From assembly GCA_964016885.1 (NCBI GenBank), contig OZ024741.1, positions 305,536,001 through 305,600,000 of the forward strand: DNA of 64,000 nt, given 5' to 3'. The DNA comes from Eledone cirrhosa (Eukaryota). Every line of letters starts with the position of its first letter. The first letter of the stretch is position 1. Below are positions 6,020 through 62,468 of this stretch, in pieces. The position numbers and the translations under genes were made by a program. A model generated the notes under the pieces. The model ran no database searches. It saw nothing but the letters and a program-made list of their open reading frames with translations, and was not told where the DNA came from.

Positions 6020-6198
6020 TAGGAAAAGGTATGACCCCGACGGCAGAGCTCAAGCCGTTTAGACGGCTATTTCAGTCCAGAAAGCCTTGAGCTCTGCCGT
6101 CGGGGTCATACCTTTTCCTATTACCCACTCTACTACCCTAAGTATTGAGTACTCTGGTGCATTATGGTCCATCTGGTTCCTTACCACAATTCCTTTGT
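6020..6198 (+). mobile_element. Fold-back mini-element in (TA)n, 'GACCCCGACGG' family, with the 3' half of a hammerhead
   Basis: 35-bp perfect inverted repeat (6020-6054/6086-6120) plus a ~78-bp tail. GAAA-GC-cttga-GC-TC motif; no CUGANGA. Homologues at 25112 and 31702. Confidence 0.7.
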
Positions 6199-6624
6199 TA
6201 TATATATATATGTAAATGTTAGTGCTGGCGCCACAACAAAAAGCACCCAGTCCACCCTGTAAGGCAGCAGTGATGATACCATGATAAAAGGCTTCCAGTA
6301 CTCGCTGTAAAGTGGTTGGTATTAGGAAGAGCATCAGGCCATAGAAATTTAGCCCAAAATAGAATATATGGGTTAGACATGGTCACCTGACCTATCTAGC
6401 CTCAGAATGAGACAATCCCGTCCAACTCATACAAGCATGGAAAATGGATGTTAAACAATGATGATGATGATGATGACACACACATCAACTCTATATTGTT
6501 TAGTTTGAGTTTCTAAATAACTACAATACAAGGATACTACATCCACATGGTTGCTTTATCTGCTAGAAATAACAGCCAAATTTCTACAAATCATGCCTTG
6601 CTATCTTTAAAAAGGAACTTTACT

Positions 6625-6819
6625 CCTTTAATATTTTAGCATTTAAACAGGCTGTATCCAGCCAGAATTCTCTCCCTTCTTTCTGTTTAAACTGGCCTAT
6701 TGTAGATAATATCAAAATCTTGTAGATTCAATTTTATGTAAGATAATTTTGTCAGATAAAGTCTTTACCACAAAAAAATAATAGTATATATAGAGTAATG
6801 TAAATGCTAAAAGGGTTAA
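6625..6819. mobile_element. TTAA/CCC (piggyBac-like) MITE
   Basis: Homologous to 2128-2346; ends AAATGCTAAAAGGG-TTAA. Confidence 0.7.
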
Positions 6820-7527
6820 GTGACACTTTGCTTTATAGTTTTTGGTAATATTTCTGCTTCAAAATTACATATCTATTTGTTTATCTTTATACACAGGAAA
6901 AGAGAAAGAAAAAGAAAAAAAAAAGAGGCAAGGAGGAGGAAAAAGGGAGAGAGATTGGGAAAGAGCACACTCTACATGATTGACTGCATTACACAAACAA
7001 GATGGTAAAAGTACCGCTTCAGAAAACAGCCTGTTTCCCAGTGTATCAGCCATTCCTGCTCATGGGATTTTTCCTTTGGTGTGATTCCCCTTTCCTGATC
7101 TTACAGAGGAAAATGATGACATTCTGGGGATTGAGGACATTGGAGGTTTTGATGGCAAATAGTCCAAAACAGAAATGATCAGTCAAAGCCTGGTATTTAG
7201 TTATCTACCGTTCTTCTGTGGCAGTCTGGTGACTGAGGACATTGGAGGTTCTCAATGGTAAAGGATATAAGATGGAATTCCTCTGTATTACAGGTTCTGA
7301 TAGCCTGTGGCTAAAGTGATGAGGTTGGCTCAGAACAACTGATACCCTGTGGCTAAAGTGATGAGGTTGGTTCAGGAGAATGTGTTGCAGCATTAGAGAA
7401 CAGTTCACATATTTACAGATGGTATAACATTGTTTCTCTCAAGGTTGATGATGGGTCATGTGTCACTTTGGACAATGAATTAATGTGTAAGTGGTTGAGT
7501 ATTCCACAGACACTTGTACCCTTAAGG

Positions 7528-7702
7528 CAGGGTTTCCCAAAAGCTGGATCCTTTTTGGTTCAGAAACTTTTGAGGGAACTCCAAAATCTAATACTGTTAT
7601 ATGGTCGTCATATAAATATACACCTCTATCTTTTTTCATGGTACCCCAGACACTCCTTTGCGAACCCCTGGGGTTCTGCAGAACCTACTTTGGGAACCAC
7701 TG
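7528..7702. mobile_element. hAT-like MITE
   Basis: Imperfect TIRs CAGGGTTTCCCAAA / TTTGGGAACCACTG. Confidence 0.6.
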
Positions 7703-7708
7703 CTTTAA

Positions 7709-9112
7709 CCCTTTAGCATTTAAACTGGCCATATCTGGCCAGAATTCTCTCACCTCTTTCTGTTCAAACTGGCTGTAACCGGCTGCTCATGATGTTATGT
7801 TAATGTTCTCAAAATAAATAATATCAAAATCTCATAGATTCGATATTATGTGAGATAATTATGTGAAGTAAAGTGTTTATCGTGAAAATATAATAGTAAA
7901 TATAGAGTAATCTATCTATCTAGGGCGGGTAAAATTCCCAAGATCCATGGACGAGTTCTCTCCAGTGGTCTCTGTCCCTCATTATCGCTGCCATGTCCTG
8001 CGTCTCCAACAGACCAGTGTCTGTCCTTAGGGTATCAACATATGTTAACCTCGGTCTTCCTCTTCCAGTGTGTCCATGCAGGGGCTCTCACAGGAGCACT
8101 GAGTGCAGTGTCAACTCTGGATGTCGGTGGGCATGTCCGGCTAACCTCAGTCTCCTCTGTGTCACTTTTGAGCTGATTTTGGAAGGCTCCGTACAGCTCT
8201 GAGTTTTTTATCCTCAGTGTATACTGATTAATGATCAGAGCCATCCTCAGCATTCTAGTGTAGGACCAATCCACCATCTGAGTGAGTTTCTTGGTCAGTG
8301 TCCAAGTCTCAGACCCGTACAGCAGCATAGACTCCACTACAGCAATGAAGAGGCGGATCTTCAGGCCTTTACGAAGGTCCGACTTCCACACTGGTCTCAA
8401 GCTGTGGCACGCTGCCCAGGCTTTGCTCTTCCTCTCGATCACATCATCTTCTGTATTCACCAATCTTTGCTCCCAAATACAGGAAGTCCTCAACCAACTC
8501 TAGCGGCTTCCCGCCTACATTCATAATCTTCTCTAGCTTCTTAATATTCTCTACCAGATACTTCGTCTTAATCTCATTCATTCTCAGCCCCACACTCATC
8601 GACACAATCTCAACCTCCTGCATCAACTCCTCTGCCTCCCTCATTGTGTTTGTTACCAAAACTATGTTGTCGGCAAATTCAGCATCCGATATCTTTTTTG
8701 CCTTAACTCTCCTGCTCTGATCCGGTGTTAGAGTAAAGCCAGAGTCCTGGTGTTTTTCCAGTGCAAGGTGCATACAATAGTCCACTACGATGATAAAAAG
8801 GTAGGGAGCCAATGTATCTCCTGGAGCACTCCAGTATCTCAAAGAACTCCGTGATTCCATCAGGGACAACCAGAACGGCTTCGGAGAGGGAAGATCAACC
8901 ACCAGTCACATCCTGATGCTGAGCACGATATTAGAGGGAGCAAAGTGCCTTCCTGCGGTCATGGTTTTCATTGACTTTAGGAAGGCCTTTGATTCTGTGG
9001 ACCGTCACTGCCTGATGAAGATCTTACAGGCTTATGGAATCCCCAAGAAGATAGTGGACCTGATATCACTGCTCTACACCAACACCAATAGAGTAATGTA
9101 AATGCTAAAGGG
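7709..9112. mobile_element. TTAA/CCC (piggyBac-like) MITE interrupted by an RTE LINE
   Basis: TTAA at 7705-7708 and 9113-9116; TIRs CCCTTTAGCATTTA / TAAATGCTAAAGGG. Confidence 0.8.
7912..9087 (-). mobile_element. 5'-truncated, 5'-inverted RTE-type LINE (RT pseudogene)
   Basis: Minus strand: GVLQGDTLAPYLF...EFADNIVL...LLYGSETWTLT with a (GATA)n tail. Plus strand 8841-9087: QNGFGEGRSTT...FIDFRKAFDSV. 10-bp TSD ATAGAGTAAT at 7902-7911 and 9088-9097. Confidence 0.85.
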
Positions 9113-61100: not shown

Positions 61101-61602
61101 ATGTCTGCTGTTTTTACTGCAATGAGTCATCACTTCTATTGCGACCAATTGAAACGACTAAAACAATGTGAAATAAAGTGTCATCATCAATGACACAACG
61201 CATCATCCGGCTCAGGAATTGAATTCACGACCTTTTAACAGTGTGACTAGCAACCCAAGCAGTAAGCCAGGCATCTATTATATCGTAAAAAAACTGATCG
61301 TAATTATTCTTTTATTCTTTTACTGTTTAAGAGATTTCCTTGATCATATCGACTACAGTACTTCTTTTAAAGACTGGCAATTATTTTATCGATTTCTTTT
61401 TGTTGAACGGCTATAAGCCAGCACAGAAACGGATGCCACACATTGCATATTACATCTATGAAATTTCACTCAAAGAACTGGTCAACCCGAAGCTAAAGTA
61501 GAAAATACTTGTCCGAGGCACCACGCTGTGGGACAAGACCCGAAACCACATAGTTGTGTAACGAACTCCTTCACAACACGACCATACCTAGGAACTATTA
61601 AA

Positions 61603-61960
61603 TAACTATTTTTCCAGCCTGTGGGGTTCGAGACGTTTGGTGGAACTGGACCACTGACAGCGAAGTTCTTGTCATCGTTGGCAGCTCATCTTACCAAGAT
61701 GTCAGGAGATGCCCATGAGGGTGCCTGGTTGTTTCAGCGCCTTAGCCCTCGCCATCACCCGCGGTAATGCTGCGAGCGTGTTGGCTTGCCTCAAAATGTT
61801 CTGTTGACCCTTGTGATGTGTTGTGCAACCGATTGTCGTACTTGGTGGTGAATTGATGGTTGTTTTTGTTTGTTTGTTCTTTTTTTTCCTTTTCTTTTTC
61901 CATCGCTTTGATCATACATTTTTGTGTATTATATTTGTGAGGTTCCTCACAACAATTAAT
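61603..61960 (+). mobile_element. CRE LINE 3' end
   Basis: ETFGGTGP...GAWLFQRL(S)LAITRGNAASVLA; 3'-UTR hairpin shared with 14140-14160. Confidence 0.75.
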
Positions 61961-62045
61961 TGATTTATTATATGTGTTTATATTTTCATTCTGTAAGAAT
62001 TATGAATAAAAGTAACCAGGACTAAATACATTAAATTATTTAATT

Positions 62046-62103
62046 GATTTACGAACGTTTCTATCAATACAGTAAAAAATTCAATACTGATTTCCTCAGA
62101 ATC
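62046..62103 (-). ncRNA. Type I hammerhead ribozyme
   Basis: Minus strand GATT-CTGAGGA-AATCAGTAT...GTATTGATA-GAAA-CGTTCG-TA|AATC. Confidence 0.7.
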
Positions 62104-62220
62104 TATCACGCAATATAAATAACATAATTACTTACCGGACATTTCCATTCCGAAAACGTTAAGAAATTTACTGATATTCATATTATATACATTATTGAGA
62201 AAGATTATATATATATATAT

Positions 62221-62468
62221 TTTCATTACCACTAAAAGGCGAGCCGTGGATTACAGAGTCGGGCAAGATCGATACAGATCGAACCTTGAGCTGATCGGTG
62301 GCGAAACGTGCGTCACCAACCAATAAACGTAACGAAGGAGTAACCACTCGTCCTTGTTTTATTTCATTATACTACACTGTCTCGCTCTACACCTCGATAC
62401 AGATGTGAACCTAAACATCGAGTACTCACCCGGGTGAACCTACAGTAACTCCGTGTTACACTCCCTGG
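62221..62468 (+). mobile_element. PLE-like 3' end inserted in (TA)n, with the 3' half of a hammerhead
   Basis: GGTGGC-GAAA-CGTGCG-TC|ACC near 62297-62317; CUGANGA absent (5'-truncated); TA repeats on both sides. Confidence 0.5.

Follow-up and report, generated by a model that had tools for sequence, protein, structure and literature searches.

Penelope-like elements (PLEs) that combine a reverse transcriptase (RT) with a GIY-YIG endonuclease, the endonuclease-positive (EN+) PLEs, are described in PMC8557442 with 5' truncation, an adjacent inverted copy, a one-sided tail, hammerhead motifs and (TA)n targeting. These five traits of PLEs are thus already in print (PMC8557442, PMC4209133, PMC11167929); how tandem and inverted ends form and why microsatellites are favoured are named as open questions in PMC8557442. 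Scattered and opposite-strand hammerhead pairs from truncated PLEs have been reported, together with a U3-A8 core (PMC4209133). In vitro, an anole PLE cuts and extends both target strands on an uncleaved RNA template, with two internal RT starts bounding the tail (PMC11167929). Here we analyse a 64,000-nt stretch of the Eledone cirrhosa genome (G000:C2:305536001-305600000, within a 3.0-Gb assembly; hereafter the window), in which a first-pass annotation had recognised inserts lacking open reading frames (ORFs) and had attributed them to PLE pseudo-long terminal repeats (pLTRs) mobilised in trans. We are confident that these inserts correspond to PLE 3' ends (pLTRs), probably synthesised by the elements' own enzyme as two short complementary DNAs (cDNAs) that ended up head to head in (TA)n. 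They likely represent the known short insertion footprint of PLEs and not a new class of mini-element, because most of them match the ends of longer protein-coding PLEs in the same genome.

The direct support consists of 3' ends common to RT and GIY-YIG frames, two fixed boundaries, variable 5' ends and TA flanks. Thirty genomic copies each were fetched for families A, F, B, D, an older D relative and E, followed by an upstream walk. Upstream, copies of families A, B, D, E and F continue into Penelope-like RT and GIY-YIG frames or lie directly against them (loci L002, L366, L358, L362 and L187, respectively). The 3'-end identity between window inserts and these ORF-linked relatives is 99% for F, 96-97% for A, 94-95% for B, 91% for D and 82% for E. 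The pLTR origin advanced in the first-pass annotation is therefore borne out, and the coding PLEs with the same pLTR for which it proposed to search exist in five families. Its view of the inserts as non-autonomous is not supported, since each of these five families has relatives that are ORF-linked and share its 3' end; some short PLE copies could still have been mobilised in trans. It had also seen no PLE RT/GIY-YIG ORF in the window, and tblastn with four PLE proteins indeed gave no hit there.

RT and GIY-YIG occur in one linked ORF for F (L186, L187), B (L366), D (L358) and subfamily E2 (L362, L363), and in pieces for A (L002, L005, L014). Locus L187 exhibits two pLTRs, each 99.4% like the window insert of family F, flanking a broken RT-endonuclease frame; L186 retains 565 open residues, and copies of F are 99% identical to one another. 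In L366 (family B) the two pLTRs are 3.07 kb apart with a broken frame between. The tail of family A leads directly into the ORF start in L002, and inverted copies of this family contain the endonuclease frame in L005 and the RT frame in L014. The E2 tail directly adjoins the ORF start in both L362 and L363, with 82% identity to the E1 insert of the window. The order in L358 (family D) is (TA)19, an inverted 920-bp copy, the tail end, the ORF, a 1.33-kb 3' untranslated region (UTR), the hammerhead, the tail and (TA)n. Partial-tandem pLTRs, an inverted 5'-truncated copy and a one-sided tail are present in L187, L366, L358 and the window inserts, and the pLTR contains a type I hammerhead motif. 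Family C probably belongs with a Hydra-type PLE, as a 750-aa frame of this type lies 4.6 kb upstream of its copy in L361, with low-complexity DNA between.

The protein encoded by family F exhibits the Hydra-type DKT, CxCX5C and CxxC + CxH motifs, and cysteines are absent between GIY and YIG (no CCHH). Its RWK position is a stop codon in L187 and reads RWK in the 60%-identical protein P0003; E2 and B show RWR, and E2 also DKT. Among 8,000 scored sequences the F protein has 2,323 relatives at E<=0.001, the best 120 of which are essentially unnamed, and a PDB sequence search with it returned nothing significant. The 510-aa open stretch of L358 matches Pfam RVT_1 (E = 5.5e-7) and GIY-YIG (E = 8.3e-7), has a Neptune-type CX4CxxC linker and two cysteines between GIY and YIG, and is 25% identical to the F protein over 231 aa. 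By these motifs four families are Hydra-type and family D is Neptune-type.

The Hydra clade (PMC8557442) shares with our proteins a C-terminal GIY-YIG domain without CCHH, RWK and DKT, the CxCX5C linker and CxxC + CxH, and with our elements canonical hammerheads, (TA)n targets, 5' truncation, an inverted 5' copy and a one-sided tail. The E. cirrhosa elements differ in the number of families at very high copy number and in their long 3' UTRs (0.9-1.3 kb). Few Hydra families outside cnidarians were found in PMC8557442; its supplement (Craig et al. 2021) lists Hydra-1_Obim of Octopus bimaculoides with a (TA)n preference, an element that we liken to ours by description and not by sequence identity. 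L358 resembles the Neptune clade, to which it is assigned by motifs, in its RT, linker, two GIY-YIG cysteines and microsatellite target (PMC8557442), and differs in that family D carries a U3-A8 hammerhead core.

A masked self-BLAST of the window found nine fold-backs, against none in five block shuffles. Eight of the nine have (TA)4 at one outer end, compared with 3.8% of random window positions, and one (30627-30836) is a pairing between two neighbouring inserts and not between the arms of one. Arms are 95-100% complementary in the inserts at 21682, 26172, 30491, 30781, 31371, 32183, 40786 and 49956; for that at 26691 the inverted-arm search listed just a 56-nt pair (93%). One-sided tails measure 61-134 bp, in contrast to the 30-40 bp given for PLEs (PMC8557442), and the 49956 insert has a 14-bp tail. 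The plan of fold-back, tail and (TA)n flanks noted at first reading is thus real; the insert at 32182 ends in (CA)n and that at 49956 has no TA run on its left. The families number at least nine, where at least six had been claimed.

The 140 Rfam matches of the window at E<=1 include no hammerhead family, and we therefore wrote a custom type I descriptor. A strict form detected four motifs and none of family A, whereupon stem II was treated more leniently and the shuffles were rerun under the relaxed rule. The relaxed descriptor identified nine complete type I motifs in seven inserts, against a mean of 0.2 (maximum 2) in 100 block shuffles. The main inserts complete by descriptor are 26172, 26691, 30495, 30785, 31309 and 40790 (named by first-pass start), and 21682 is complete by eye and fold. 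The statement that most inserts carry a CUGANGA hammerhead accordingly stands for the main inserts (7 of 11 with a complete motif) and not for the partial copies (1 of 6, at 62046), and in families B and D the core is U3-A8 (UUGANAA). No core is present in inserts 6020 and 25112, and the 5' strand of stem I is absent from 32182, 25883 and the forward arm of 40790. The CUGAUGA at 50013, taken for the core of the 49956 insert, is a coincidence: it belongs to stem II, and other copies place the true core about 25 nt upstream.

Covariation is apparent among eight related A- and G-type motifs, in which every one of the 99 cells is paired and 3 of 14 pairs are altered on both sides, in a small set from which the structure itself was derived. 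A wider sample consisted of 40 blind 10-kb stretches at round coordinates (400 kb). It contains 35 motifs, compared with 0-3 in ten shuffles; 31 have the C3-G8 and four the U3-A8 core, and four unpaired core variants gave 0, 2, 0 and 0 hits. When stem I was not required, 33 of 80 hits nevertheless had at least four stem I pairs, against a mean of 4.7 with permuted 5' flanks. As motifs, the type I hammerheads of the inserts are real. They resemble those of PMC4209133 in their short palindromic helix III, in pairs 100-700 bp apart on opposite strands and in the existence of mollusc examples, and differ in the long stems II (to about 120 nt) or 2-3-bp helices III of several families.

Each family exhibits two fixed right-hand boundaries, the end of the tail and an earlier end of the inverted arm, and the tail meets TA at one distance in 28 of 31 F copies and 19 of 30 B copies. 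On the other side, 5' ends and inversion points are variable, which is the usual truncation pattern; sequence reaching more than 150 nt further upstream is present in 17 of 29 measured F copies and in 7 of 26 A copies. The arms were compared in 87 fold-backs whose inverted arm spans the cleavage site within 1.5 kb: 16 have the longer inverted arm, 21 the longer forward arm, and in 50 the two are equal within 8 nt. Thirty of the 50 equal pairs are from family D and were mostly picked by a biased query; without this family (52 fold-backs) the figures are 14, 18 and 20.

Superimposed on this variability is a pile-up of 5' ends. It comprises 7 of 14 incidental D copies (within 7 nt), all four incidental and 20 of 21 fetched E1 copies, 11 of 15 B copies (within 19 nt) and 14 of 26 fetched A copies (within 4 nt), the fetched sets being biased toward copies that reach the query start. 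The pile-up site lies about 30 nt past TATAAA in D, E1 and E2, and 31 nt past TATTTAT in B. Promoters have been described in pLTRs (PMC2377424, PMC3846280), and the site in D and E1 is likely the RNA start.

Two candidate fixed units were rejected. Family D seemed a fixed palindrome (22 of 30 copies) and family E a fixed 140-nt unit resembling a short interspersed nuclear element (SINE), because copies had been ranked by identity. The former was rejected by loose ends in reads, a pattern search and the L358 parent, the latter by copies extending upstream (L261, L264, L268) and by E2 copies abutting ORFs. An exact 32-nt D pattern has 8,275 genome hits; in a hand count of the first 100, 16 opposite-strand pairs are separated by 4-9 nt (8 pairs), 19 nt (1) and 52-1,337 nt (7). 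Exact hits number 4,977 for E2 and 221 for E1, with long upstream copies in both. An apparently conserved mismatch of the D arms proved private to the window copy, and a 77-nt joint in E reads that goes back on itself, tried as an array, is best read as a partial tandem.

The insert plan would follow directly from the priming of two cDNAs on opposite strands and their later joining. By analogy with the anole element, which belongs to another clade (PMC11167929), the GIY-YIG domain would nick both strands of (TA)n, and the RT would begin within the RNA at two nearby sites, the outer start yielding the arm with the tail and the inner one the arm without it. We infer that each cDNA would then halt early, often at the RNA 5' end about 30 nt past the TATA box in D and E1, and that the cDNA ends would be joined through microhomology or filler DNA. 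Poseidon_Ac (Frangieh et al. 2024, PMC11167929) resembles this scheme in the cutting and extension of both strands, an AT-rich target, two internal RT starts and an uncleaved template; it differs in clade, and head-to-head joining and run-off to the RNA start are not in that paper. The template could be the 5' pLTR of a coding RNA (in cis) or a solo pLTR RNA (in trans).

Several points weigh against this explanation. Unequal arms could also arise from deletion at palindrome centres after insertion. The E2 pile-up is weak (3 of 12), and in A and F the commonest 5' ends are not preceded by a canonical TATA box at 30 nt. The ORF-linked copy of E is 82% and that of D 91% like the corresponding window insert. 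Long open stretches are limited to 565 (F), 510 (D), 750 (C) and 530 aa (E2), with no complete intact ORF, and Pfam did not recognise the Hydra-type proteins. The link of family C is a single locus with its 4.6-kb spacer, and two genome searches with this family returned no candidates, which is uninformative because even the window copy was not recovered. The fetched loci yielded no parent ORF for G, H, I or J, no genome search having been aimed at them.

An origin from the same PLE ends by another route, in which a single cDNA folds back on a terminal short palindrome and primes its own mirror arm, is unlikely. For rotifer PLEs, self-priming has been suggested on the basis of palindromes at junctions (PMC3846280), and many centres in our set are exact or fall on short palindromes. 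Homopolymer tract lengths also tend to agree between the arms of one D copy, and in 22 D palindromes one private variant stands symmetrically on both arms; the other eight of nine private D variants are on one arm only. Such folding cannot generate inverted-arm sequence that the forward arm lacks, as in the 16 of 87 fold-backs above and most clearly in L005, L014, L046 and L049, where the inverted arm has ORF sequence not in the forward arm. The longer inverted arms thus count against simple snap-back, although a later loss of sequence at the centre could give the same appearance. Some junctions contain filler DNA between two arms that both end at the pile-up site (L065), and the fixed inner boundary fits the second RT start shown in vitro (PMC11167929).

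Families consisting of the pLTR alone, transcribed from their own promoter and copied in trans by PLE enzymes in the manner of retrozymes or SINEs, are in our view rather improbable. Action of PLE enzymes in trans has been described (PMC3846280), retrozymes have been argued to derive from pLTRs (bioRxiv 10.64898/2026.07.22.740005), most incidental copies are short, and the 5' ends pile up near the likely start, so that solo pLTR RNA could be the template. However, the same short products would arise in cis if priming took place at the 5' pLTR of an RNA that carries the ORF. The single palindrome centre shared by 22 of 30 identity-ranked D copies reflects query bias, since only 2 of the 16 opposite-strand pairs have it, and the fixed 5' end of E dissolved as described above. 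A fixed short unit without an ORF-linked member was not found in A, B, D, E or F. The non-long-terminal-repeat retrozymes are likewise ORF-less, PLE-related and equipped with a type I hammerhead, but they are tandem direct repeats with circular RNA (PMC7229834, bioRxiv 10.64898/2026.07.22.740005), whereas the window inserts are inverted and single, without tandem direct repeats that each hold a complete hammerhead, and longer copies run into PLE 3' UTRs.

Perfect palindromes are a known artefact of long reads. An assembly or read artefact is nonetheless very improbable here: arms differ by substitutions and end at family-fixed boundaries, and the tail is one-sided. Among raw Illumina DNA reads, those of run X11 include opposite-strand joints at the E centre from 5-7 start places, and contigs of X1, X4 and X5 contain such joints too. 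The palindromes are therefore found in raw reads as well, at the level of the family and in short reads, where library chimeras are possible. That the inserts are TA-targeting miniature inverted-repeat transposable elements (MITEs) of Tc1/mariner-type DNA transposons with chance ribozyme-like motifs is hardly conceivable despite their inverted repeats and TA flanks, since the repeats are not terminal at both ends or of fixed length, the tail is one-sided, 5' ends and centres vary, the motifs exceed shuffles and show paired changes, and 3' ends continuing into RT frames refute it for A, B, D, E and F.

The blind stretches contain 35 motifs in about 27 insertions, and 45 fold-backs of which 33 are TA-flanked, that is about 85 motifs per Mb and one fold-back per 9 kb; the window is typical of this sample. 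The inserts behind the first-pass density of about one per 4 kb are clustered, 10 of the 17 pieces lying within 25.1-32.4 kb. Extrapolation suggests roughly 250,000 motifs genome-wide, an estimate with a wide error since counts per 10 kb span 0-5. The sampled density is far above the counts of PMC4209133 (about 9,000 in Xenopus), the descriptors being different; for the axolotl, again with a different descriptor, 126,247 type I motifs are given (PMC7229834). Octopus repeat papers report abundant Penelope elements, and the word "hammerhead" is absent from the accessible text on O. vulgaris repeats (PMC13282606, PMC8967140). We found no published cephalopod hammerhead counts or TATA-linked 5' ends, subscription papers and preprint supplements being outside the search. 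Neither the scale of the motifs nor the 5' pile-up about 30 nt past the TATA box in D and E1 was found in print.

As the finding is known as a class, it mainly corrects annotation: such inserts are to be filed as truncated ends of Hydra- or Neptune-type PLEs, not as MITEs, microRNA-like hairpins or a new non-autonomous group. We propose tentatively, as a possibility short of even likelihood, that the genome's approximately 250,000 hammerhead motifs mostly belong to head-to-head stubs, many being run-off products that begin at an internal RT start, end at a TATA-driven RNA start and were primed on both strands of one (TA)n target. On this view the genome would preserve the PLE integration step in a natural archive of very large size. 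It would also yield, on a large scale, long perfect RNA hairpins whose folding disables the ribozymes they carry. Young families such as F (99% identical) offer thousands of junctions for deciding between two-strand priming and snap-back.

The sense hammerhead of a fold-back is always in the second arm, and in the predicted fold of 40786-41068 it is trapped in a 98-bp duplex. Read-through RNA is for this reason predicted more likely to form a hairpin than to cleave itself, so that of the two products first foreseen self-cleaving RNA is doubtful and long hairpins stand as a prediction. At about one per 9 kb, fold-backs could be a large source of double-stranded RNA if transcribed. In a test for A-to-G editing between arms, 4 of 414 fold-backs were strand-skewed (p<0.01), and the one inspected (L346) is a microsatellite; the test is weak because the aligner caught only two window fold-backs.

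Table 1. PLE-derived inserts in the window (positions of the window, strand in brackets).
Position (strand)	Family	Structure	Hammerhead	Identity to related locus
6022..6198 (+)	B, Hydra-type PLE 3' end	Fold-back 6022-6118, 80-bp tail, (TA)n both sides	No core	94-95% to both pLTRs of full-length L366
21682..22237 (+)	C	Perfect 211-bp arms, 134-bp tail	CUGAAGA core at 21897, ~120-nt stem II, palindromic stem III; both strands complete by eye	97% to L361
25113..25282 (+)	B relative	Short fold-back, tail	No core	82-83% to L366
25435..25612 (-)	Older D relative	Single arm, tail	U3-A8 core, collapsed stem II	72% to L358
25883..26128 (+)	I	Single arm beginning at CUGAUGA	Stem I 5' strand absent	No parent ORF found
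26172..26546 (+)	A relative	122-bp arms, 84-bp tail	Complete, core 26366	82% to L002
26684..27025 (+)	A (insert 26691)	Unequal arms, tail	Complete, core 26831	96% to L002
30491..30760 (+)	A relative	Inverted arm longer than forward arm	Sole complete motif in inverted arm, core 30584, minus strand	
30781..31245 (+)	A	189-bp arms, 86-bp tail	Complete on both strands, cores 30886 and 31054	97% to L002
31310..31682 (-)	D, Neptune-type PLE 3' end	152-bp arms, 61-bp tail	U3-A8 on both strands, cores 31479 and 31574	91% to ORF-linked L358
31702..31799 (+)	B relative	Inverted-arm stub, tail	No core	
32183..32372 (+)	E, subfamily E1	58-bp arms, tail running into (CA)n at end	Core 32243, stem I 5' strand absent	82% to ORF-linked E2 copy L362
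40786..41067 (+)	F, Hydra-type	98-bp arms, 73-bp tail	Complete in inverted arm, core 40882, minus strand; forward arm without stem I 5' strand	99.4% to both L187 pLTRs
49576..49702 (+)	A fragment	Inverted arm fused to final 26 bp of tail		
49956..50085 (+)	G (A-related)	57-bp arms	True core truncated away	
62033..62205 (-)	H	Single copy	Complete, core 62099	No parent found
62221..62468 (+)	J	Single arm, tail, (TA)n both sides	Core truncated away	No parent found

The interval 25100-32400 holds ten PLE stubs of five families in 7.3 kb, several parted by nothing but (TA)n. Since such nesting is also common in the fetched loci, it suggests that PLE stubs reuse flanking TA runs as targets. At the other end of the window, a 34-bp stretch at 62172-62205 recurs inverted at 62482-62513, bracketing the family J insert. 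At L358:380-1950, L361:2900-7600 and upstream in L037, the PLE 3' UTRs carry internal duplications as well as (CA)n, (TA)n and (TG)n tracts, so that these elements may spread microsatellites.

Other loci add to the variety of these elements. A further Hydra-type frame, 725 aa open, is present at L365:1819-3993 and L318:6452 and 7083, with an inverted pair of U3-A8 hammerheads ahead, and represents a further family. At L192:4220-7143 (G000:C2, about 307.90 Mb) there is a retrozyme-like array of tandem units of about 558 bp; the units are relatives of family I, and each combines a CUGAUGA core with a palindromic stem III. In L092-L118 the two family D arms of one copy often place the boundary of a TnAm tract differently, the total length being usually equal.

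The window otherwise abounds in microsatellites and remnants of transposons, and the ORFs listed for it are long interspersed nuclear element (LINE), Gypsy-like or simple-repeat frames. A Gypsy-like long terminal repeat retrotransposon remnant occupies 34891-38372 on the minus strand, with protease, RT and integrase-like frames in separate pieces. A dispersed SINE-like repeat, similar to an octopus SINE, has 11 copies, among them those at 28847, 32598, 32790, 32988, 40334, 41573, 45516, 50369, 54511 and 57268. Minisatellite arrays lie at 10458-12400, 27750-28670 and 48390-49230, with periods of 61, 31/32 and 20 bp. Finally, two overlapping frames at 45615-47046 resemble the C-terminal part of a non-long-terminal-repeat element and exhibit an endonuclease-like motif.

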